Origin: Candidatus Bathyarchaeota archaeon
Lineage (GTDB): Archaea; Thermoproteota; Bathyarchaeia; Bathyarchaeales; Bathycorpusculaceae
Reading direction: 5' to 3'
DNA: 64,000 nucleotides
NCBI GenBank assembly: GCA_963833575.1
Contig: CAWHXY010000004.1
Coordinates: forward strand, 192,001 to 256,000
A model generated the notes under the pieces. The model saw nothing but the letters and a program-made list of their open reading frames with translations. It was not told the DNA's origin and did not search any database. Positions 31,020-60,617 of this stretch are shown here, piece by piece. Made by a program: the position numbers and the translations under genes. How positions within the stretch are numbered: position 1 is the first letter of the stretch; each line of letters starts with the position of its first letter.

Positions 31020-31155
31020 AAGTAAGAATAGTTTACTTTCATACTATTATACATTATCAATCTAGTTAAGAAAGTCAATCTACGCCAATTTAACCTAATC
31101 TTTTAAGTATCTAAAATCATGTTGGTTCGGGTTATCAGGAATAGTGATTGCATCT

Positions 31156-31302
31156 TTTTGACGTTTGTTGACGTTCCTCGACGTCCTTTGACGGCTATTG
31201 ACGACTGTTAACGCAACCTGCAAACGTAGCAAGCTCTAAAACAAAAGAGCAGCCCAAAACAACTGTTCAGAAAATGGCAATTTCCATTGTTGTTGTTCTT
31301 CT
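31156..31302 (+). repeat. Dispersed element copy A (TTGACG 10-bp array x6 + conserved body)
   Basis: ACG at 31161/71/81/91/201/211, CAACCTGCAAAC at 31214, TGTTGTTGTTCTTCT end. Confidence 0.9.
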
Positions 31303-31370
31303 AAATAATATTTCTCAAGAATCAGCATTACTTTAGAGCTTGTCCATTTTAATATAGAAGACACAAAAAA

Positions 31371-31769
31371 TTAAGGTGCGCTACACCATTTTGTTTTCAG
31401 ATTTTGTATTTCTTTAAAGTGCGGGTCGTCGGAAAACAAGATGCATTCATGAATTTGAGCGGATGCGGCGATTACGCTGTCAGCCATCGGTATTGAATGG
31501 GTGCTTCTAAGTTCTGCACTTTTCACTGCGGTGTTATAGTCTACGTCAATAATTTGAAAGTCTCTGCGTATTGTGTTGCTTCTTAGGGCTGCAACATCTT
31601 TGCCTTCTCTTTTCAAATTAATGCGGTGTATCTCATGAATTGTCAATGAAGAAACCATCCTTTCTTTAACTGACCTTAATTCTTCTTTAAGTTTTCTTAA
31701 AAGCTCATTATTGTCTGAATAGAAATATTCGACAAAAAACCGAGTGTCATATAATCGTCTTTCAGGCAT
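31371..31769 (-). CDS. vapC: VapC-type PIN toxin
   Basis: LYDTRFF, MADSVIAASA, FSDDPHF; paralog of 2348..2746. Confidence 0.9.
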   Translation of the reverse strand: MPERRLYDTRFFVEYFYSDNNELLRKLKEELRSVKERMVSSLTIHEIHRINLKREGKDVAALRSNTIRRDFQIIDVDYNTAVKSAELRSTHSIPMADSVIAASAQIHECILFSDDPHFKEIQNLKTKWCSAP

Positions 31770-31989
31770 CCTGATTCCTCATTTGATCCAGCATCTGTTT
31801 TAACTCGGCAACATTGGCTTTTCCAGCGCCGCTTCCAGCGAGATCAAAAATGCTCGGGCTCTTTTTTATTATGATCACGCCGTCTTGCTCAACAATCTTT
31901 ACTTTGGAGTTTTCTTCTATGCCAAACTTTCTTCTAAGTTCCACTGGAATAGTGACTTGTCCCTTCCGCGTAACAACAACTTCAGTCAT
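31762..31989 (-). CDS. vapB: AbrB-family antitoxin (VapB)
   Basis: VTRKGQVTIPVELRRKFGI; overlaps the PIN start. Confidence 0.9.
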   Translation of the reverse strand: MTEVVVTRKGQVTIPVELRRKFGIEENSKVKIVEQDGVIIIKKSPSIFDLAGSGAGKANVAELKQMLDQMRNQDA

Positions 31990-32084
31990 ACCATTACCAA
32001 TGTACAACTCATACAAAAGTACTACTTAACTTTTCTCCAACACAATCAACTAAACTACCCCAAAATAACTGCATAAAGGGGAAT

Positions 32085-32162
32085 GAAAACAAACCCCTCA
32101 ACAAGAAAGCAGCCCAAAACAGCATCTTCAAAAATGGCGACACAGGCGTTGTTGTTCTTCTT
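32085..32162 (+). repeat. Dispersed element copy B (body only, degenerate 5' part)
   Basis: AAAGCAGCCCAAAAC..AAAATGGCG..GTTGTTGTTCTTC. Confidence 0.75.
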
Positions 32163-32282
32163 GTTCTTTCAAAGCTTAAATCAACAAAAGCATTAAGCAA
32201 AGAAAAACCTTAAAACCGCGAAGAAAAAAATGCCACTTAAAACCATCTTAACTGAATTTCAGGCGTCTAACAAATTTATGTT

Positions 32283-32395
32283 CTCAAATTGTCTAAAAAT
32301 GTCAAATAATGTCAAATCGTGTCAAATTATGTCAAAAAATGTATCAACCTGCAACCAAATCAAACCCCAAATCAAAAAAGCAACCCAAAACACAA
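32283..32395 (+). repeat. Dispersed element copy C (TGTCAA 10-bp array)
   Basis: TGTC at 32290/300/310/320/330, CAACCTGCAAC at 32345, AAAAAAGCAACCCAAAAC. Confidence 0.9.
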
Positions 32396-32505
32396 ACAAA
32401 GAAATTTGAACGAGAATATCCAATCGGAGATTGTGACAGTTAACTGATTCTGGTCTGAATTATTTATTAGGTGGTTAAAGTCAAATCTAGGTTGAGGCGT
32501 TTTCT

Positions 32506-33000
32506 GTGAGTTTTGAAACACAAGTTGCAAAGACTTTGCCGATGGATAAGTTGGAGAAGCGTATTGTCGAGTTTCTGAAGGAGCAGAATATGTGTGTTCT
32601 CGCTACTTGCGGCGAGGGGGTTGCGCGTGCTACTCCAATTGAGTTTCACTCTAAAGGATTAACATTGTATTTTGTAGGAGAACCAGGAACGAAGATAAAG
32701 AACATTGCCAGGAATCCAAATGTGAGCGTGGGCATTTTTCTGCCATATACGGGTTGGGACAGCGCGAAAGGTGCGCAGATCACTGGAAAAGCAACAGTTA
32801 TCTCCAGAAACAGCCCTGAGGAATTCAAAGAAGGCTTAGAAGCATATCAATGGGAAAAAACAGCCAAAGAATTAAACATAAAGATGTTTCCTAAGTCAGT
32901 GGAGTTAATCAAAGTTGAACCAGAAAAAATCGAATACGTAGATATGTCACTGAAAAAACTAGGCTACAACCCACGACAAGTGTACACCTCAGTTAAATAA
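32506..33000 (+). CDS. Pyridoxamine 5'-phosphate oxidase-like FMN-binding protein
   Basis: CVLAT..ATPI..KIKNIARNPNVS, GAQITGKA. Confidence 0.87.
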   Translation: MSFETQVAKTLPMDKLEKRIVEFLKEQNMCVLATCGEGVARATPIEFHSKGLTLYFVGEPGTKIKNIARNPNVSVGIFLPYTGWDSAKGAQITGKATVISRNSPEEFKEGLEAYQWEKTAKELNIKMFPKSVELIKVEPEKIEYVDMSLKKLGYNPRQVYTSVK

Positions 33001-33103
33001 AGACAAAAGTTCAATCTCCCACGAGGTATACCTTCATTTTCTGAACAGTGCCATCGTTAATAGTTATAAGATTCGCTGTGGCAATTATTTGTAGGGATTT
33101 GTT

Positions 33104-33307
33104 ATGAAAGTGAAAATTAAAGAGAACGGTCCTATTTTGTTAGAATCGAATGGGCATGCAAAAATAACGCAAAATGGACAGGAAAAACCAATCCAAGGCT
33201 CAATAGTAGCACTGTGCCGCTGCGGCCAAAGCAAAAACTTACCATTCTGCGATGGATCACACGCAAAAGCCAACTTCAAAGCAGATGCAGCAGAAATCGA
33301 CATCTAA
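33104..33307 (+). CDS. CDGSH iron-sulfur domain protein
   Basis: ALCRCGQSKNLPFCDGSH. Confidence 0.95.
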   Translation: MKVKIKENGPILLESNGHAKITQNGQEKPIQGSIVALCRCGQSKNLPFCDGSHAKANFKADAAEIDI

Positions 33308-33463
33308 ACGGCAACTGAGTTTCAGCCGCCTCAAGAATCCTTTTTTCAAACAAAGCTACGAAAGAACTTGCAAACTTCCTAAAATATTTTCAAAATCAGA
33401 ATCCACAGGCTTGGGCAATAACAATTATACCACACGAATCACTTACTTTATCAAGGTTATTTT

Positions 33464-33844: not shown

Positions 33845-33910
33845 AGCAGGGTAGGTCGCTAAAAACTCCTAAACAATTGGTTATGAATGTTTTACAGAAG
33901 ATCTGGATTT

Positions 33911-35056
33911 TCAAGTTTTTCTCCTCTTTGCAACGATAACTGCAGACAAGACTACGATCATCGAGACAAACAGAGTGATTCCAACCAGTTGGCTAGGAAA
34001 CTCTGGAACTGAAGATGTCGCAGACGGAGTTGAGGTAGATGTTGTGGCTGAAGACGCTGGGCTTGGCGTAATGGATGTGCTTGAGGAATCTGATATCACT
34101 GAGACCGTGTCACTCTTAGAATTGGTTACGAATGTTTCACCCTTAGCAGAATCGTAAGCCACAAAATCAGGAACGATGCCAACGTTTACGGTCGCAACCA
34201 CTGCGTTGGTGCTGTCCGATATTACCGAAACAGAGTTGTTGCCGCCATTGGCCACGAAAATCTGGCCCATGCCGGAATCATAAGCAACGCCATAGGGATA
34301 GGCAGAAGGGACAAGATTGATTGTTCCGACGATGGAATCGGTGCTATCTGATATAGCCAAGACCTGATTGTCGTTGGTGTCGGACACGAATATCTCGTTT
34401 TTGACGGGATCATAAGCCACTCCATAAACATAGTTGCCCACTTGGAACCCATTGACTACGGTATTGTTGTTGTCTGCAATAACTTCTATTTCGTTAGCTG
34501 AATTTACGGCCACGAAAATCTCGCCCGTGCCCGAATCATAAGCTGCACCCAAGGGGTTGTCCTGAACAGTTACGGTTGCTACCAATTGATTAGTGGCGTC
34601 TGATATTACTGAAACGGTGTTGATACCGGAATTGGTTACGTAGATCTCGCCATTGCCGGAATCGTAGGCCACGCTCCAGGGGTTGGTTCCAACGCTCACG
34701 GTTGCCACCACCTTATTAGTGCTGTCCGATATGACCGAGACAGAATTAGAACCCCAGTTGGACACAAATATCTCGCCCTTGGTAGAATCATATGCTAAGC
34801 CCCAAGGAGTAGTTCCTACAGTAATCGTTGCGACAACCTTATTGGTGCCTTCCGATATGACCGAGACGGAGTTAGCGCCAGCACCATAATTCGCTACGAA
34901 TATCTCGCCTCTGGCAGAATCATATGCTACGCCCTCCGGAGAACTTCCCACTGTAACCGTCGCTGTTACCCCAGCGGCGTGGACTGCGTTGACTGCTGAC
35001 AAAACAAAAATCATAATGAATAGTAAACTCAAAATCCTACAAACTCTAAATCTCAT
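33911..35056 (-). CDS. YVTN/YncE beta-propeller surface protein with PEF-CTERM-like sorting tail
   Basis: Seven AYDS..GEIFV.N..SVSVISD repeats; VPEFP + TM + KRRK. Confidence 0.9.
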   Translation of the reverse strand: MRFRVCRILSLLFIMIFVLSAVNAVHAAGVTATVTVGSSPEGVAYDSARGEIFVANYGAGANSVSVISEGTNKVVATITVGTTPWGLAYDSTKGEIFVSNWGSNSVSVISDSTNKVVATVSVGTNPWSVAYDSGNGEIYVTNSGINTVSVISDATNQLVATVTVQDNPLGAAYDSGTGEIFVAVNSANEIEVIADNNNTVVNGFQVGNYVYGVAYDPVKNEIFVSDTNDNQVLAISDSTDSIVGTINLVPSAYPYGVAYDSGMGQIFVANGGNNSVSVISDSTNAVVATVNVGIVPDFVAYDSAKGETFVTNSKSDTVSVISDSSSTSITPSPASSATTSTSTPSATSSVPEFPSQLVGITLFVSMIVVLSAVIVAKRRKT

Positions 35057-35472
35057 TATCCTCTCTCACCTTTGTGTCCCCTCAAGTGAAATGCAGATAA
35101 AAGCATTTCGCCAAGCAACACGTCGGTAAGATGCCAAAAGCTCGCTTTCTTCTGTTTCTTTCTGAATCCATTGCCCCGAAAGAGTCGCAGCAATTTCGAA
35201 GCTATGCCTAGCAAAGTCTCCGTCATATCTGATTCTCAAGTGCACTTGGAAGTTCTGGATCTCCAAGCACAACATCATCTGCGTCCCCTTCCCAAACGGT
35301 GCTCGAATTAAGCAGCACTTATACTATAAGCATCAACGATAATAGTAATTTTTGCGCCCATACAGAACGGGTGACTTTTTCAATGAAAATGCAAAGTTTG
35401 TACAAATTAGGGAAAAGTCTTAAATTGAAACTGGAAAATAGGCTAAAAGAGAAGAAATTCGAGGGAATGCAA

Positions 35473-35832
35473 ATGAAAATCAAAGTTTGGAAACTCTTAG
35501 GTTTGTTATCAGTAGTGATCTTCATGTTGTCCTCAGCCGGTTCAGTTCATGCTGCAGCCGCAACAGCAACTATAACCGTAGGAAACAGTCCCGTAGGCGT
35601 GGCTTACGATTCTGGCAAAGGCGAAATATTCGTAGCGAACAACTGGGCAAATACAGTTTCTGTCTTATCTGATTCCTCCGGGACATCTAGCACGTCTAGC
35701 CCAACAGCATCTGCATCAAAAAATCCATCAGTACCTGAATTCGGAAGCACAGCGCTCATCATGGTTGTGGCGACAATGGTTGTTGCGGCATGTGCAGTTG
35801 CTTTGACAGTGAGGATAAGAAAACAACTGTGA
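35473..35832 (+). CDS. Single-blade YVTN protein with signal peptide and PEFG sorting tail
   Basis: One AYDSGKGEIFVANN..TVSVLSD repeat, S/T linker, VPEFG + TM + RIRKQ. Confidence 0.75.
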   Translation: MKIKVWKLLGLLSVVIFMLSSAGSVHAAAATATITVGNSPVGVAYDSGKGEIFVANNWANTVSVLSDSSGTSSTSSPTASASKNPSVPEFGSTALIMVVATMVVAACAVALTVRIRKQL

Positions 35833-36096
35833 TAGTATCAAGAAGAAATGGAGATTGCGAAAAAGTCCCCTTTATTTTTTCCCTTTTTAGTTGCTTGCAT
35901 AAAGATTGTTAAAATTGGAGAATGCGGAAACTAGAACTCCATGTTTTTTAAAAAGTTTTTAGGTTCTGTTCTTATCTCGTAAGTTGGATCTTAGCGATCA
36001 AGGTCACTGGTTGCGGTTGGCATGATCGAGATTTAAAACTTGATTTTAATGAATTTTGGGACAAGCGATCGCCCAGACTCAAAACTGAATTGATGA

Positions 36097-36501
36097 CTAC
36101 TCTATTTGGAAGACGTTTCCACATTTTGTGCAACTGATGCTTTGCTTCCCAGTTTCTTTGGAAATAACCAAAAGATAACCGCAAGATGGACACTTGATTG
36201 TTTGTATCTTATTTTTAGCCGGTTCGGTTCTCTTGGCTGGTTCTGTTCTGGGCTCTGGTTCAGTTCGGGCTTCTGGCTCCGTTCTAGGCGCCGGTTCAGT
36301 TCTAGCCTCTGGTTCCCATTTGCTTGCTTGAACTTTTGTCAACAAACTCATCCCGATAAGTAACTCCAAAACATCTGCCGCTTTTATGTTTACCTCATCG
36401 CACACTCTGGTCGCAGACCACTTGATAGACAAGATGGTGCGCGGATACGTGGTGCCTTGTCTAGGCCAAGTGAGGGTTCTTAAAGCGCAATCTGGAACCA
36501 A
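36097..36501 (-). CDS. Protein (possibly 5'-truncated) with EPxxRT repeats and C-terminal zinc ribbon
   Basis: 18-nt tandem repeats; CPSCG..CTKCG. Confidence 0.6.
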   Translation of the reverse strand: MVPDCALRTLTWPRQGTTYPRTILSIKWSATRVCDEVNIKAADVLELLIGMSLLTKVQASKWEPEARTEPAPRTEPEARTEPEPRTEPAKRTEPAKNKIQTIKCPSCGYLLVISKETGKQSISCTKCGNVFQIE

Positions 36502-36595
36502 TTTAAACCCTGAAACAAAAAGTTAGGTGGAGCAAGCTGGTTAAGATTCAGATAATTCAATAGTGCGAACGGCTTTGATGTCAGATTTTTCGCGG

Positions 36596-36774
36596 TTAAA
36601 TCGATTGAACGCGATTAAACTAGCTTAAAATAGCTTAAACTAGCTTGAACTAGCTTAAAAGGGATTAAACTAGCTAAAAATGCACTCAACCTGCAAACAA
36701 AGCAAAGGCTGAATCAAAAAAGCAACCTAAAACAACTTGAACAAAATGGCAACGCCAACGCTGTAGTTCTTTTT
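36596..36774 (+). repeat. Dispersed element copy D (TAGCTTAAAC 10-bp array x8)
   Basis: Units at 36601..36671, CAACCTGCAAAC at 36687, AAAAAAGCAACCTAAAAC, AAAATGGCAA. Confidence 0.9.
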
Positions 36775-45829: not shown

Positions 45830-45965
45830 CATTTTCGCCGTTTTCCAACTTTTAACGCCGATTACCGCCGCTTAACACCGCAATCTGGAAACAAATCAAA
45901 CGCTGATTCAAAAAAACAATCCAAAACAGACAGTCCAGAAATAGCAATTCCAACTGTTGTTGTTC
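45830..45965 (+). repeat. Dispersed element copy E (CGCCG 10-bp array)
   Basis: CCG at 45838/58/68/78, CAATCTGGAAAC at 45881, TGTTGTTGTTC end. Confidence 0.8.
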
Positions 45966-46015
45966 ATTCAGAAAAAAAAATCAAACCAAAAGTTAACAAG
46001 AATTATGATTACATC

Positions 46016-46172
46016 TTTTGATGTTGGTTGACGATCGTTGACGTATTTTGACGAATAGCGACGACTGTTGACGAATATTGACGTAGCCTGCAAACATTAC
46101 AATCCCCAAACCCAAAAAACAATCTAAACCCGTTTGATTAAAAATTGCAATTTCATCTGTTGTTGTTCTTCT
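46016..46172 (+). repeat. Dispersed element copy F (TTGACG 10-bp array x6)
   Basis: ACG at 46031..46081 every 10 nt, CCTGCAAAC, TGTTGTTGTTCTTCT. Confidence 0.9.
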
Positions 46173-47640: not shown

Positions 47641-47937
47641 ATGCCAGTAACAATTGGTTCACTATTCAGACGAATTGTTAAAGAATTGAAGACGAAAGAC
47701 GACAACCCAAATAGCTGCTTAAACAATCCAAAAAGCGACTTCTATAACCCAAATCACGACATCAACAATCCATGCAGCGACATCAACAACCAAAATAGCG
47801 GAATCAACAATGCGTCAAATAACCAATACAACAAAGAACTGCGAAGATGCGCTCTGCGAGAACTCATAAATTTGTATTTGTCTGACTATCTGTCTACTTA
47901 CCAAACAGAGAAGCCCGTTGCAGAGTATATCCCATGA
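47641..47937 (+). CDS. Small Asn-rich protein with 7-aa (NNP.SDI) repeats
   Basis: 21-nt tandem repeats. Confidence 0.5.
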   Translation: MPVTIGSLFRRIVKELKTKDDNPNSCLNNPKSDFYNPNHDINNPCSDINNQNSGINNASNNQYNKELRRCALRELINLYLSDYLSTYQTEKPVAEYIP

Positions 47938-47971
47938 AATCATTAAGCACTAAGTAAAACAAGGTTTTTTG

Positions 47972-52611: not shown

Positions 52612-52926
52612 TTATTTTTGTTCTATTTTTATTGCTTTTTTTGAATTTGTCATTTCTTGGAGTAGAGCGTAGTTTTCTTCCATCGTTTGTGAGAGAAAGT
52701 AGGTGGTGCCGTAGTTGTCGCCCATAGGGATTACAAGTTTGTGTTTTTGGAGGATTGACAGGTGGTGGCTTATTGTTTTGTAGCTTCTATTTAGGCGTGT
52801 AGCTAATTGGTTGGTATTTTGTGGGGTTTGTTTGAGGGTTTTGAGTATTTGTATTCGGGTGTCGCCGCCTCTTGTTGTTGTGAGCAGCCATTTTAGGATT
52901 TGTTGCGTTGGTTTCTGGTTTATCAT
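52612..52926 (-). CDS. ArsR-like winged-helix regulator
   Basis: WLL..TRGG.TRIQIL..PQNTNQLA..YKTISHHL..YG..YF. Confidence 0.87.
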   Translation of the reverse strand: MINQKPTQQILKWLLTTTRGGDTRIQILKTLKQTPQNTNQLATRLNRSYKTISHHLSILQKHKLVIPMGDNYGTTYFLSQTMEENYALLQEMTNSKKAIKIEQK

Positions 52927-53044: not shown

Positions 53045-53168
53045 TCTCATTATCGAATTGTCTAATAATGTTAATAATGAACCTGCCTGCAAAAGATCAA
53101 GCTCTGAACTAAAAAAACAACCCAACCCATATTAAAAAAGGGCACCACAAGTGTTGTTGTTCTTCTTT
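53045..53168 (+). repeat. Dispersed element copy G (degenerate C-type array)
   Basis: AATTGTCTAATAATGTTAATAATG, CCTGCAAAA, AAAAAAACAACCCAAC, TGTTGTTGTTCTTCT. Confidence 0.8.
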
Positions 53169-55430: not shown

Positions 55431-57335
55431 CTATATCAGCAACAACCAGGCAATGAAGATAATTAGGGTAGCTACGAATAGTTCTGCCCAAAGACGTTTG
55501 CTATGGCTGAATATGTCTTTTCCACTCATGGGCGATATTGGGAACGTTCCAAAGAAAGAGCCGATCACACACATTGACAATCCGGCATCCCCAATAGCTG
55601 GGTAACCACCCTTCAAAAGCAAGAAGAATACTCCAGCGAAGGCTAGGCTGATAAGGATTCCTGAGGCAGCAACCATAGCGCCTAGGTGTTCTGTGTATTT
55701 TTTGGAGTTGACGCTTCGCGTGGGAGAAGAGAAAGGAACCTTAAAGGCAAAGGTTGTGAAAAGAAAAAGAACCAAGCCTAAGGGCCAAATTGAGTGTTCG
55801 CTCCATACGCCTTTGCTTCGCAGATACGCTATGGAGAAGAACTTTTGAACAAAGCCAACAATGAAGCTTGTTGCCAAGAAAACAGGTAATAACACCCAAA
55901 TTTGACTCAGAGTGATGACTTTGACATATGAGAAGGAAATGGCCAAAACAACAACCAAAACCACATACGCTAAAGTTTCAGTCTTAGTGGGTTTGAAAAC
56001 AGAACCAGCTTTATCTTTTGCGTCTAGCTTACGTCTAGAGGCAACAACTTCTTCAAGCCACTCTCTTATTTTGTCAGGAATCAAGTCTCGAGTCTTTTCT
56101 CCGATTGCTCCACCCACGCCCCCTAACGGGTTACTTATTACAGCAAAAAGCAACGAAACTACACCTAAGACTACTGCGGATACACCGACTGCTGCTACTG
56201 CATTAGTTGGACTAGGAACCCAAACCTGTTGCAAAAGGTCTGACGAAGAGGATGGCTGCGGTGATTGAGTAGGACTTGATGTTGGATTAGAATTTGGGCT
56301 TGCTGTTGGAGAAGTAATTGGAGTTGGCGACGAGGAAGTTCCTGGACTGGCCGTGACAGACGTGGAAGAATCCGATATTACAGAAACCGTGTTGGCTCCC
56401 AAATTTGTTACAAATATTTCGCCTTTTGTGGAATCGTATGCTACACCTGAGGGTGTGGTCCCTACGGTTGCTGTTGCAACGACAGCGTTAGTGCTATCAG
56501 AAATAACTGAGACAGTTCCAGAACCGTGATTGGAGACATAAATCTCGTTTGTGCCAGAATCATAAGCTACGCCGTAAGGGGTGGTTCCAACTGGTATGGT
56601 TGCAACAACTGCGTTGGTGCCGTCTGATATAACGGAGACTGTGTTGGCGCCTGAACCGTAATTGGCAACAAAAATCTCACCTTTGCCGGAATCATAGGCT
56701 GCGCCTGCAGGAGAGATTCCCACAGTTATGGTAGCAGTCACGGCATTATTGTTATCGGAAATAACTGAGACCGTATTATAGCCAGAATTGCAGACAAAAA
56801 GTTCTGCCTTTCCTGAATCATAGATTACTTTATTGGGATTTGTTCCGACGGTAACGGTTGCAACTACCGAGTTAGAACTATCAGAAATGACCGAGACTGT
56901 GTTGTCCCCAGAATTAACTACGAATACTTCACCTTTGACTGAGTCATAAGCTATGTTACTGGGAGTTGTTCCAACTGTCACGGTTGCAACGACAGCATTA
57001 TTACTATCAGATATGACTGAGACGGAGTTGGAACCATGGTTGGTCACAAATACCTCATTCTTACTAGAATCATAAGCTACCCCGGTAGGAGAAGTTCCGA
57101 CGGTCACTGTTTTGACCACGGCTTTAGTGCTATCAGAAATAATTGATATTGTGTTGTACCCTGAATTTGCTACGTAGAGTTCACCTTTGCCGGAATCATA
57201 AACTACTCCAGTGGGAGAAGTTCCCACCGTTATTGTGGAGGTTACTCCAACTGCATGGACACCACTAACTACAATAGAGCAAGCAAAAACAACCATGAAT
57301 ATTAATACCAAAAGCCTCAAGACTTTAGCATTCAT
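55431..57335 (-). CDS. YVTN beta-propeller fused to a multi-TM degenerate M50/S2P-like domain
   Basis: Seven AYDS repeats, S/P/T linker, multiple TMs, FPISPMSG.DIF. Confidence 0.85.
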   Translation of the reverse strand: MNAKVLRLLVLIFMVVFACSIVVSGVHAVGVTSTITVGTSPTGVVYDSGKGELYVANSGYNTISIISDSTKAVVKTVTVGTSPTGVAYDSSKNEVFVTNHGSNSVSVISDSNNAVVATVTVGTTPSNIAYDSVKGEVFVVNSGDNTVSVISDSSNSVVATVTVGTNPNKVIYDSGKAELFVCNSGYNTVSVISDNNNAVTATITVGISPAGAAYDSGKGEIFVANYGSGANTVSVISDGTNAVVATIPVGTTPYGVAYDSGTNEIYVSNHGSGTVSVISDSTNAVVATATVGTTPSGVAYDSTKGEIFVTNLGANTVSVISDSSTSVTASPGTSSSPTPITSPTASPNSNPTSSPTQSPQPSSSSDLLQQVWVPSPTNAVAAVGVSAVVLGVVSLLFAVISNPLGGVGGAIGEKTRDLIPDKIREWLEEVVASRRKLDAKDKAGSVFKPTKTETLAYVVLVVVLAISFSYVKVITLSQIWVLLPVFLATSFIVGFVQKFFSIAYLRSKGVWSEHSIWPLGLVLFLFTTFAFKVPFSSPTRSVNSKKYTEHLGAMVAASGILISLAFAGVFFLLLKGGYPAIGDAGLSMCVIGSFFGTFPISPMSGKDIFSHSKRLWAELFVATLIIFIAWLLLI

Positions 57336-57775: not shown

Positions 57776-59464
57776 TTAGGTGAATTTGCCTTTTGTTTTG
57801 AACTGCTTTTCATAGATTTCCCTAACTCTGTCTATGGTGTCAGCTTCGTTAGGTGTTTTGTCGTCTCGGATCCGAGTGATCCGCGCAAACCGAAGCGCCA
57901 TTTGGCTCTTGTATTTGGGGCTCTTCTGAATCTCATTGTACGTGACCTCAACCACAATTTTAGGAATCACCTCAACGTGATGCCCCTCCAGTCTAACCGC
58001 ATAAGCCTCTAAGTGCTTTGTCATTTCAGCCATTTCGGCGTCGGTTAACCCTTTGAAGGTTTTGCCTAGATCCAAAAACTCACCTGTCTCAGGATCCCTC
58101 GCAGCAAAATAATAATCGGAGAGCCAGCTTTTACGTCTCCCATAACCATACTCGGCAGCAGTTATAACAAGATCTAAGGTCTCGAGCACTGGTTTTATTT
58201 TCAACCATTTTTTTCCTCGATTTCCAGGCGTGTAGGGACTGTCAAGTTTCTTCGCCATTAACCCTTCGTGCCCAGAAGACGTAGCTTCTTTGAAAAAATC
58301 TTCTGCCTCATCGATCCTATTGGTCACGATTTGCTTGCTTAAGCTGATTTCTTCTGCAGTCTGGGCTAAGATTTGCCTACGCTGATCATAGGGCAGCGTG
58401 ATTAGGCTTTCACCGTTCAGGTAGAGGATATCGAATAGGTAAAGCGTCAAAGGAATTTTCTGTGCCATGCTGGCTATTTCTCGGGTTCGTTTGAAGCGGC
58501 GCATTAAATGCTGAAAAGCAATTGGATAACCTGCACTGTCCAATGCGACGACTTCGCCTTCAACGATTGCTGACTGCGCCACAATGTTATGTTTTACGAT
58601 TTCAACGATTTCTGGCAGGCTTTCCGTGACATTACTGAGTCGTCTACTGAAAATCTCGACGTTACCGTTTTGTTTGTGGATTTGAACTCTTGCACCGTCA
58701 TACTTGTATTCGAAAGCGGTTTTGCCACTAAACTCTTCTAGAGCCTCTTTTACTGACTGAGCGGTTTGTGCGAGCATCAGCTTCACCGGCCTAAAAACGC
58801 TAAAGCCCGCTTTCTCTAAGCCTTCTAATCCTTGTGTTTTGAGGGTTGCCGCAACCTCGCCTATGTCTCCTAAAACCATTCCAGCATGCTGCACTTTCTT
58901 TAGAGGCACATCAAATGCTACTGCGACAGCCTGCTCCATTAAACCCTCATGAAGACCAGTGCGCATTTCGCCAGTGAAAATTTTCACCAAGTATTTGGCT
59001 TCAAGGGGGGTCGCTTGGCTAAACAGACTAGTGACTTGGCGTTCTTTTTTGGTTCTTGAGCCTGCACCTGATGCTTGGGCGATGGCTTCGAAGGCGCGAC
59101 TGACTTCGGTTATTGTTAAGGAATTTTGGGTCAGCTGGGTTTGTTTCTTTGTTTTGGATTGTTCAAGAACTGCTTTCGTGGCTGAGCCGATGTCACCCGT
59201 ATTTGCCATTGCTTCACTAAATTTGTCCCAGTTAAACTGGCTTACCTGCTCCAAAACCCCGGTAACGGTAGACCAACTGACATCGAGCATCTTTTGGCTG
59301 TATTTTGGAAAAGCACGGCCAACCATCATGTTTACCGCTGGCTCAATTTCTTGTGGTGTAAGAGTTTTTAGGTAGTTTGCGGTTAAATCTATGATTTCTA
59401 ACCGTTTTGTTGTCGCTTCAACTTTTTCAAGAAGGCCAGAGAGAGATTTGAATAATGCAGACAT
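57776..59464 (-). CDS. lig: ATP-dependent DNA ligase
   Basis: EYKYDGARVQIH, EGE, FDIL, EGLMAK, WLKIK, LRFARITRIRDDK. Confidence 0.96.
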   Translation of the reverse strand: MSALFKSLSGLLEKVEATTKRLEIIDLTANYLKTLTPQEIEPAVNMMVGRAFPKYSQKMLDVSWSTVTGVLEQVSQFNWDKFSEAMANTGDIGSATKAVLEQSKTKKQTQLTQNSLTITEVSRAFEAIAQASGAGSRTKKERQVTSLFSQATPLEAKYLVKIFTGEMRTGLHEGLMEQAVAVAFDVPLKKVQHAGMVLGDIGEVAATLKTQGLEGLEKAGFSVFRPVKLMLAQTAQSVKEALEEFSGKTAFEYKYDGARVQIHKQNGNVEIFSRRLSNVTESLPEIVEIVKHNIVAQSAIVEGEVVALDSAGYPIAFQHLMRRFKRTREIASMAQKIPLTLYLFDILYLNGESLITLPYDQRRQILAQTAEEISLSKQIVTNRIDEAEDFFKEATSSGHEGLMAKKLDSPYTPGNRGKKWLKIKPVLETLDLVITAAEYGYGRRKSWLSDYYFAARDPETGEFLDLGKTFKGLTDAEMAEMTKHLEAYAVRLEGHHVEVIPKIVVEVTYNEIQKSPKYKSQMALRFARITRIRDDKTPNEADTIDRVREIYEKQFKTKGKFT

Positions 59465-59574
59465 TTAGTTAACCAAGAAATTTTGAACGATAGAAATAGG
59501 GTTTCGGTTGCTTATTTAATTAATTCCCAAAAAATTGTTCATTTAATTAACATTTTCACTAGGATTCTAGAATT

Positions 59575-60125
59575 TTCGAGCAACTCGGGACAATTTGGGA
59601 CAATCAGGGACAAATAGGACAATTCTAGACGCAACCTGCAAACAAACCAAACCCTGAATCAAAAAAGCAAGCCAACATAAGTTGCAAAGAAATTTGCCCA
59701 CTTTATGGTAAAATTATTAAAGATCTGTCTCGATGTTTCACAATGATTGGGATGATTCGCGATGCCAGCTGCAACCGACTTAAGCTATAAAACAAAAAAG
59801 CAACCTAACGCAAAAAAACAAAATGTAGAAGAAAATAATTTGCGCTCAAGGACATCTAAATTTCAAGACTTAAAGATAGAGACATGTTAAATCTCAATTT
59901 CCATTTTAGCACAAATAACGAAAAAAACGACTGATACACGACAAATCTACACGCAACCTGCAAACGTTTCAAAGCTTAAACCAAAAAAACAACCCAAAAC
60001 AAACTGAACAAAAATGTGCACATTTTACACCTTAAAATATTGAGGATCTACCACGATGATTCGCGATTAAACACGATGATGTCTGAAAACGCCACTATAC
60101 CTTAATTAGGAAAGCAAACAAAAGA
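59575..60125 (+). repeat. Four tandem units (H-K) of the dispersed element with different 10-bp array cores
   Basis: GGGACAA array + anchor 59632; GATG array + anchor 59766; ACG(A) array + anchor 59954; CGAT array + degenerate anchor 60082. Confidence 0.85.
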
Positions 60126-60188
60126 AAGAAAAAATTCATGGCCACTCAAAGCTAACCTAAGGAGGTTATAGCGACTAATAGAAAGGGT

Positions 60189-60617
60189 TTAGGAGAATAC
60201 GGAGAATGATTGTTCTTCGTCGCTGCCTGAACTTTGATTGAGTTTTTGGTTTACTTCCTTGATTTTTTTAGTCAGCTCTTCAGCTTTTTCTTGGTTGTTC
60301 AAGGCGGTGTAGCAGTCTCTTGCGTATTCTAATGCGCTTACGCCGTATCTGTCAAAGGCTTTGCTAAAGGAGATTTCAGAGGATTTCATAAAGAGCCCAG
60401 CAGCTTTCTCGTTGTCTTTGAGGGCAAAAGCAGCTTCACCAGCTTTGTAATACATTTCTGCCGCACCAAAATAATTCTGGCCTTTAAAGTAAAGCTCACC
60501 AGTCTTAACAAAGAGGTCTCTTGCCTCCTCAAATTTGCTGTTTTCCATTAACGCAATAGCTTGTTTATGAAGTTTAATCGGATCTTCCCTAACGTTACTT
60601 GCACACATAACAGTCAC
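60189..60617 (-). CDS. TPR/SNAP-like helical repeat protein
   Basis: EEARDLFVKTGELY, AAEMYYKAGEA, AAGLFMKS, ARDCY. Confidence 0.7.
   Translation of the reverse strand: MTVMCASNVREDPIKLHKQAIALMENSKFEEARDLFVKTGELYFKGQNYFGAAEMYYKAGEAAFALKDNEKAAGLFMKSSEISFSKAFDRYGVSALEYARDCYTALNNQEKAEELTKKIKEVNQKLNQSSGSDEEQSFSVFS

Follow-up and report, generated by a model that had tools for sequence, protein, structure and literature searches.

Stacked gene-less modules of a predicted MraZ/PhS018-like regulator family between lig and a TPR gene in a Bathyarchaeota genome

The boxes of MraZ in E. coli are TGGGN repeats, and the ParR-parC centromeres of plasmids are built from iterons of 10 or 11 bp that are bound by small proteins. 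BOX elements, with their variable number of boxB, and BIME/REP clusters are mosaic intergenic repeats of bacteria. For MraZ from Mycoplasma genitalium at the dcw promoter, the cryo-EM report describes GTG(G/T) boxes with 6-nt spacers and one subunit per box, placed in each major groove; transcription starts within the first box, and the outcome is repression (PMC12957436). PhS018 from Pyrococcus horikoshii is presented as a putative uncharacterized protein, an archaeal relation of the AbrB fold with its swapped hairpins, whose recognition of DNA is only predicted from alignment (PMC4333400).

The window analysed here is a 64-kb stretch of DNA (G000:C4:192001-256000) from a Candidatus Bathyarchaeota archaeon (G000, 2.75 Mb assembly, 41% GC). 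Within it, the 724-bp spacer between lig and a TPR gene contains four plus-strand units arranged head-to-tail. These units are stacked modules of a new MraZ/PhS018-like family, whose role as regulators is predicted from sequence, a structural model and analogy. We put the probability at about 60% that they are gene-less copies of the array-plus-core regulatory cassette of paralogous MraZ-like regulators.

With MraZ the family shares short boxes (at least three) with a 10-bp period at the regulator's own gene, although the focal units themselves are gene-less; their arrays are clear in units 1, 2 and 4 and decayed in unit 3. The two-repeat swapped-hairpin barrel is also common to both, here as an AlphaFold model, and the one subunit per box that has been shown for MraZ would be expected here as well. 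Yet the family protein has 92 aa versus about 150, is without the MraZ oligomerisation helices and fails the Pfam MraZ model, and its genes lie outside the dcw cluster at the loci examined. It also differs in arrays of up to 11 boxes and in dozens of dispersed, stacked array-plus-core copies that carry no gene. PhS018 (2glw) is the best structural and profile match, with the same length and a single-chain barrel, but is only 22% identical to the family. AbrB, MazE and VapB are likewise small swapped-hairpin DNA binders with autoregulation through repeats at their own promoter, as predicted here, but no toxin partner adjoins the genes examined, and the family is modelled as a single-chain pseudo-dimer with long direct-repeat arrays and not palindromes. 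BOX, BIME and REP sequences resemble the modules in being non-coding, modular and multi-copy with variable sub-repeat numbers, and in lying between genes, often at 3' ends, with variation between close relatives. The modules differ from them in having no hairpin or palindrome, in being tied to a cognate DNA-binding gene family and in their archaeal host, and are unrelated to them in sequence. ParR-parC likewise has short direct repeats spaced by the helical turn ahead of the gene for the binder itself, but no partition ATPase lies beside the genes examined, the 85 copies are chromosomal and the protein fold is another one.

Table 1. Coordinates of the units and flanking genes in the window.
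Feature	Position	Strand	Description
lig, ATP-dependent DNA ligase	57776..59464	-	on the array side of the stack
lig own promoter region	59465..59586	-	block GGTTGCTTATTTAATTA (59505-59524), on the lig strand TAATTAAATAAGCAACC, conserved in relatives
Unit 1	59587..59715	+	GGGACA-class array 59587-59631, canonical core, short tail; profile E 3e-13
Unit 2	59730..59880	+	CGATG-class array 59730-59764 (GATG boxes), diverged core; profile E 6e-6
Unit 3	59910..60040	+	decayed array (ACGA/CGACA boxes) ~59910-59953, canonical core; profile E 1e-13
Unit 4	60050..60137	+	CGATG-class array 60050-60078 (CGATG/CGATT), degenerate core; recognised by architecture
TPR/SNAP-like gene	60189..60617	-	3' end toward the core side of the stack
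Single unit, TTGACG class	31157..31300	+	long tail ..TGTTGTTGTTCTTC
Two-unit stack	32086..32421	+	partial unit with tail 32086-32155, then TGTCA-class unit (array 32290-32342)
Two-unit stack	36486..36765	+	partial core 36486-36521, then TAGCTT-class unit (array 36615-36679)
Two-unit stack	45852..46170	+	CGCCG-class unit, then TTGACG-class unit, long tails on both
Weak single unit	53086..53158	+	E 1.6e-5; ArsR-like small gene on the array side

Each focal unit begins with short boxes in a 10-bp register and continues into an A/C-rich core of the form CAACCTGCAAAC-N17-AAAAAAGCAACC (Table 1). The array of unit 1 has three GGGACAA boxes and one GGACAA box with a period of 10, and Tandem Repeats Finder (TRF) reports it at 59587-59624. 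Its core contains an exact CAACCTGCAAAC (59632-59643) and, after 17 nt, AAAAAAGCAAGC (59661-59672). The core of unit 3 is built in the same way, with an exact CAACCTGCAAAC at 59954-59965 and, again after 17 nt, AAAAAAACAACC at 59983-59994. Unit 2 combines the variant CCAGCTGCAACC (59765-59776) with an exact AAAAAAGCAACC (59794-59805), and unit 4 retains ATGTCTGAAAAC (60079-60090, 7/12 match) and AGGAAAGCAAAC (60108-60119, 9/12 match). A profile built from the genome copies found units 1, 2 and 3, and unit 4 fell below its threshold. Core-to-core distances in the stack are 133, 189 and 125 nt. Exact CAACCTGCAAAC occurs four times within the 64-kb window, where ~0.01 occurrences are expected by arithmetic. 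In gene direction the order is TPR, unit 4, unit 3, unit 2, unit 1, lig promoter and lig. The initial annotation had described four head-to-tail units with the box cores GGGACAA, GATG, ACGA and CGAT, and both its coordinates and the 10-bp register were recovered. Its further remark that the focal bodies lack the tail also holds: the tail motif is present in 21 of 85 genome copies, in 18 of them as ..AAAATGGCAA-N8-10-TGTTGTTGTTCTTC at a fixed distance of +71 to +79, and is absent from all focal units.

A two-block regular expression gave 53 matches in G000, two of which lie inside ORFs and are probably spurious, and the profile was built from the other 51. At E<=1e-3 this profile found 85 copies in the genome, two of them inside crude ORF calls. 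In a comparison across genomes the two-block pattern had 46 matches in G000 versus 0 for its reversed control. By pattern search it is restricted to the genus, being found in 16 of 24 congeners and in none of 16 genomes of the order's other families. The 85 copies fall into 64 clusters, of which 47 are single, 13 double and 4 triple, and stacking is thus general, with 17 of 64 clusters, and not peculiar to the focal locus. A 4-mer recurring at least three times in 10-bp phase within the 80 nt before the core was seen for 65 of the 85 copies compared with 3.1% of controls (5000 random intergenic windows), and at least four in-phase recurrences were seen for 52 copies compared with 0.06%. Arrays have 3-8 boxes (up to 11), whose 10-bp phase is strictly kept relative to the core. 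The conserved stretch comprises the array and the ~70 nt after it, namely CAACCTGCAAAC, a moderately conserved N17, AAAAAAGCAAC, CAAAACA, an A-run and TTGCACC, and ends there.

The box words fall into recurrent classes: TGTCA, TAGCTT/TAGATT, GGGACA, TTGACG, TGACT and CTACT/GTACG, as well as AACG, GCACA, TTGTCT, CGATG, ACCT, TTGCCT and others. Stacks show a recurring order of TAGxTT, TGTCA and GGGACA, and composite pairs are homologous through their spacer (~71-74%); the spacers separating stacked units are only ~50-70 nt long. The likening of the stack to a repeat-spacer array does not hold up, since the barcodes are about a dozen recurrent classes, not unique spacers, and match the operator arrays of the gene family described below.

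Neighbouring genes were located with a crude ORF map, and expectations were taken from the proportions of the intergenic types. On the core side, 40 of 64 clusters have a gene 3' end (~45% expected), often within 3-90 nt, and the remaining 24 a gene start. On the array side, a gene start is present in 30 of 64 (~55% expected), and divergent intergenic regions are depleted (9 of 64 clusters versus a background of ~30%). The gene-less copies are therefore not placed like ordinary promoters and lie mostly behind genes. As there is no preference for gene starts, neutral or selfish placement fits better than a working regulon.

Nine module copies in G000 are accompanied by a gene of ~92 aa, always from one family and divergently oriented on the array side. 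These nine are all the intact family members in the genome, and all nine have core and array upstream, with the array next to the gene. Read toward the start codon, the T-rich core comes first, followed by the array and a gap of 15-60 nt. The family consensus is MPLTxxVxF..LQ..N..QIPKLIRWxFKLE...KDGRIxIPKL...EPA. Across the genus, 59 of 70 distinct genes have a core match at most 320 nt upstream with the array toward the gene, and none has the opposite orientation. In these 59 the median distance from core to start codon is 82 nt, and 52 have at least three in-phase boxes. The 11 genes without a core match belong mostly to a clade that adjoins primase-like genes. Gene and module are both present in 15 of 25 genomes and both absent in 7, with 3 discordant. 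Outside the genus the gene is rare, being found in 9 of 151 genomes of the class (G000 and G013 counted in). There are up to 12 family matches per genome and more than a dozen box words. The neighbours of the regulator genes vary; carB lies upstream in six loci, and the downstream genes are mutually unrelated.

No significant Pfam, NCBIfam or PHROGs model was found for the family. The Pfam MraZ model (PF02381) gave a sub-threshold match for one of nine proteins (E 0.013, 15.9 bits versus a cut-off of 23), and the best NCBIfam AbrB match had an E value of 0.1. Database searches returned 853 relatives at E<=1e-3; the best 120 of these 853 are mostly 92 aa long and either unnamed or called 'hypothetical protein', and a few homologues among the matches listed are labelled PrlF-like. 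In a language-model atlas the family falls among unnamed Bathyarchaeota clusters. The AlphaFold model (pLDDT 89, pTM 0.79) is a single-chain swapped-hairpin barrel. Its best Foldseek match is PhS018 (2glw; E 2e-6, TM 0.73); second and lower places are taken by MraZ entries (E ~2e-3 to 5e-3), among them cryo-EM structures of MraZ on promoter DNA. The sequence profile of the family matched 2glw with an E value of 0.022. Prediction of a 4-copy homo-oligomer gave a score of 0.01, which speaks neither for nor against oligomers.

L073 and L077, from relatives, belong to a ..QVPKYVRW.. clade that is without the canonical core; they adjoin primase-like genes, which probably belong to an integrated element. 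A decayed regulator gene in G000 (L052, C7:114966-115160; E 3e-6, internal stop) lies beside a TGTCA-class unit and carries the EFKLE signature seen in the AGACA-box clade of G063. At L047 (G000 C6, about 214750-214850), ~15 perfect CCCGTT hexamers separate a CGTT-class array from the regulator gene, and the box word seems to have expanded there as a microsatellite.

Box words follow the protein clades. AGTCAA was found at 8/8 genes of its clade, GGT(A) at 6/6, AGTAC at 3/3, TGTG at 2/2 and AGACA at 2/2, and CGTCA boxes occur at four genes. Within one tight clade residue 18 is K where the boxes are CGACT (5 genes) and T, N or A where they are CGTT (5 genes), and an NHTVQAPK variant goes with CGCC boxes (1 gene). 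Some of this agreement would be expected from the shared ancestry of linked DNA. Every box of an array bears the class word, however, which argues for selection on binding. Since 10-bp arrays lie upstream of the family genes and the box word tracks the clade, the barcodes are most likely operator arrays, each being the DNA word that one family member would recognise.

By analogy with MraZ, one barrel could sit in the major groove at each box, so that a row of barrels would line one face of the DNA, with each paralogue reading its own box word as a 'barcode'. The bound array would then gate a promoter carried by the shared core; as with MraZ, transcription would most likely run across the array toward the gene, and perhaps the other way too. 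The anatomy, the copy number, the tie to the gene family, the correspondence of box type with protein clade and the gain in the lig spacer are shown directly by the sequences, and from them we infer the DNA binding, the promoter role of the core with its direction and any effect on lig.

The focal stack contains two clear box types (GGGACA, and CGATG twice) and one decayed array. For TGTCA, TAGCTT/TAGATT and GGGACA, the most abundant classes, no intact cognate gene was found in G000, and there is one pseudogene at a TGTCA unit. When 120 congeners were searched with a strict pattern for a gene of the GGGACA type, the one match was a false positive inside another gene. Near-cognate regulators were seen in other species only, with AGTCCC at L195, TCTCG at L185, and AGACA at L179 and L190 as near-cognate for the TGTCA/TTGTCT classes. 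As the focal box types have no intact cognate gene in G000, the focal units are probably orphan, decoy or relic operators and not a record of past events. The latter had been the initial proposal, and we replace it with stacked gene-less operator-plus-core modules of MraZ/PhS018-like regulators.

Synteny of lig and the TPR gene is conserved, and in most relatives the spacer is about 100-190 bp long and free of elements. Judged from the ends of BLAST HSPs, it measures ~120-190 bp in G045, G004, G053, G062, G020, G059, G068 and G015 and ~1-1.5 kb in nine other genomes, where it is taken to hold an extra gene. Among 22 regions scanned, including that of G000, units were found only in G000 (three profile matches), in G044 (one unit of the TGTCA class in the opposite orientation) and in G002 (one unit of the CGACT class). 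We also scanned 32 metagenome contigs with the lig N-terminus, which covers between-species variation only as the best match had 81% protein identity. The TPR gene was present in 26 of them, with a spacer of at most 170 bp in 15 of the 26 and a single unit in two. Since the spacer is element-free in most relatives, the four units were gained in the G000 lineage, and the focal stack is a lineage-specific gain.

The nearest relatives of the focal units lie elsewhere in the genome. By BLAST the best non-self match is C4:688236 for unit 1 (86%), C5:44135 for unit 2 (81.5%, same class), C2:40962 for unit 3 (87%) and C5:85126 for unit 4 (75%), and no neighbouring unit is among the top 9 matches of any of them. 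The similarity between units 1 and 3 (72-75%) does not exceed the family background. The two ways in which the initial annotation might have failed, recent local tandem duplication and an invariant region, are thus both contradicted: each unit has its best match in a distant copy, and the region varies among relatives, being mostly empty, with other single units in G044, G002 and the two metagenome contigs. Units 2 and 4, ~300 nt apart, have the rare CGATG class and the exact 13-mer GATGATTCGCGAT in common, from which an old duplication of a two-unit block is possible.

How the modules spread is a separate matter, and here they may be a non-autonomous mobile (MITE-like) or recombination-prone repeat with no regulatory role at the landing site, the arrays serving as docking sites for proteins that move or copy it. 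The modules are dispersed and multi-copy, with presence/absence differences at orthologous sites, and within the one genus a species may have none by pattern or as many as 84; at the lig spacer presence, class and orientation all vary. A recent pair, gene-carrying C7:47596 and gene-less C6:31871, is 89.6% identical from the far array end to ..CTTCTTCTTC and stops sharply on both sides. In the window, units are found at the edges of indels relative to G044, which is 86-91% identical in the flanks. A 2.9-kb segment (33849-36760) with three ORFs and the unit pair at 36486-36765 corresponds to ~70 bp in G044; its right breakpoint lies exactly at the tail end of the unit at 36765, and this tail end resembles the empty-site sequence. 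A second segment (31120-33425) is variable, with 2.3 kb in G000 versus 3.5 kb of unrelated sequence in G044, and has at its left edge a unit in both genomes, of different class. Enrichment at gene 3' ends, depletion in divergent regions and the stop codons in many family genes of relatives also fit such a repeat. On the other hand, the focal units are without terminal inverted repeats, no transposase or integrase is associated with units, and no obvious target-site duplication was seen in the C7:47596/C6:31871 pair, which as one pair is a weak test. That arrays vary with the adjacent small DNA-binding gene points instead to an operator role. We regard a purely mobile repeat as unlikely; as it concerns spread, it can hold together with the operator explanation.

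Another alternative is that genes were deleted from tandem core-array-regulator gene cassettes and the stacks remained as scars, close to the initial suggestion of excised gene cassettes. In its favour, family genes do carry the same cassette before them (59/70 with core), a decayed gene lies beside the TGTCA unit on C7, relatives have many pseudogenes, and G012 has three tandem genes. In six species (L055-L058, L064 and L067) a core comes directly after the 3' end of carB and leads on to an array and a regulator gene, with different box classes between species; as two protein clades are also involved, cassettes may have replaced one another at this site, or it may be a hot spot. Against deletion scars, tblastn found no gene remnant in the focal region, its best match in the window being at 31894-31965 (E 0.18), and stacked units are only ~50-70 nt apart. 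Moreover, homology between the gene-carrying copy C7:47596 and the gene-less copy C6:31871 stops exactly at the far array end and does not reach into the leader or gene. We consider it improbable that the stacks are such scars.

The operator reading treats the core as probably the regulators' shared promoter. Its N17 occurs in two forms, AATTCAAACCCTAAATC and GATTTAAGCTTTGCCAC, the latter being TATA-like and flanked by inverted TGCAAA / TTTGCCA. At the N17 position an outgroup has a canonical TATA, TTTAAATA; among four outgroup genes inspected, L203 and L204 have a TATA box followed by boxes with a 10-bp period, and L204 reads GGGTTCTTTTTTGG..GTTTAAATAT..boxes. From the TATA-like N17 together with the outgroup TATA we take the core to be probably a core promoter common to the family. 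In several paralogue genes another TATA-like motif lies between array and ATG, so the core need not be the promoter of those genes. Normal G000 promoters have TTTATATA/TTAAATA ~50-60 nt before the ATG.

Three other proposals for parts of the module were discarded. AAGCAAC is sense-biased upstream of genes (42 versus 14) and was dropped as an initiator-like motif because its distance from TATA boxes is variable. A mini-ORF in the long tail (MAIPTVVVLL-like) was rejected as its ATG reads ATA or ATT in other copies, and the core as coding sequence was rejected as the period of the array is not divisible by three.

On its T-rich strand, with runs of 7, 4 and 6 T, the core might instead be a transcription terminator or insulator, with the array as a roadblock, and stacking would then strengthen the insulation between TPR and lig. 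This would agree with the 40 clusters whose core side lies at a gene 3' end, with the lack of a T5+ run of their own in the spacers of 23 of these 40, and with six carB loci of relatives where the core begins directly after the stop codon. The 23 of 40 are unremarkable, however, since just 39% of genes genome-wide have a T5+ run within 60 nt. In addition, CAACCTGCAAAC and AAAAAAGCAAC are conserved far beyond the needs of a T-run terminator, and the 24 clusters with the core side at a gene start do not fit. We consider termination as the main function very unlikely. A promoter core would on its T-rich strand also terminate incoming transcription. As a clue to the direction of transcription, the T-run asymmetry of arrays gave conflicting signs: TF gene leaders avoid T5+ runs (9/57, versus 21/57 with A5+ runs), and the 85 G000 copies are biased the opposite way.

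Head-to-tail units with variable inserts might suggest small RNA genes, or an array of CRISPR or attC type, but this is hardly credible, as the window has no Rfam match and no tRNA genes, no fold of either strand beats shuffled sequences (z -1.27 to +1.29; the core strand is A/C-rich), hairpin arms are absent from the unit ends and with them the inverted repeats folding at junctions that mark integrons, and the 'repeats' are only 72-87% alike with 'spacers' in recurrent classes where a CRISPR has near-identical repeats and unique spacers.

For the preferred reading, operator arrays with a shared core, one extension is tentative and, in our view, rather improbable. The cassette may be a self-spreading promoter with an addressable operator array, whose copies settle behind genes with or without the regulator and form stacks. 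If so, the genus would naturally possess at least a dozen MraZ-like regulator/operator pairs, all orthogonal to one another, like a library, in which gene-less copies insulate or rewire their neighbours or, as decoys, titrate the regulators of rival cassettes. As one protein clade lies beside primase-like genes, some of these rivals may be proviruses or plasmids. The operator reading itself offers a likely function and likely DNA targets for an unannotated protein family, and suggests that MraZ-style reading, with one small barrel per turn along a row of short boxes, has diversified into many archaeal box words. Residue 18 appears to track the box word (K with CGAC versus T, N or A with CGTT), so that a recognition code could be tested at the bench and ready-made orthogonal regulator/operator pairs may be on offer. 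In addition, an uncultured genus of soil archaea is seen to carry an intergenic repeat that is modular, widely dispersed and able to stack. Our literature search found no description of it, and such a search cannot prove it undescribed.

Elsewhere in the window, the pairs that the initial annotation placed near 32085-32395 and 45830-46172 are present (profile matches span 32086-32421 and 45879-46165), and a third was added at 36486-36765. Besides the array of unit 1, TRF reports five period-10 arrays, each immediately before a core. Where the array side of the partial unit at 32086 would lead to a gene, a minus-strand stretch (31894-31965) matches the regulator family weakly by tblastn (E 0.18 and 1.1, two paralogues) and may be the last remnant of a regulator gene. 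The PIN-domain gene at 31371-31769 (minus strand) is flanked by units and lies inside the variable segment 31120-33425. An ArsR-like winged-helix ORF (52612-52926, minus strand) is divergent from the weak unit at 53086-53158, and a different DNA-binding family thus occupies there the position that MraZ-like genes hold elsewhere. Three further repeats occur in the window: an 18/36-bp repeat at 36237-36316 within a zinc-ribbon ORF, encoding a PEPRTE-like peptide repeat, five copies of a 21-bp repeat at 47702-47811 upstream of the gene at 47969, and a 126-bp tandem duplication (two copies, 73% match) at 56830-57079, inside the NHL-repeat propeller gene at 55431-57335.
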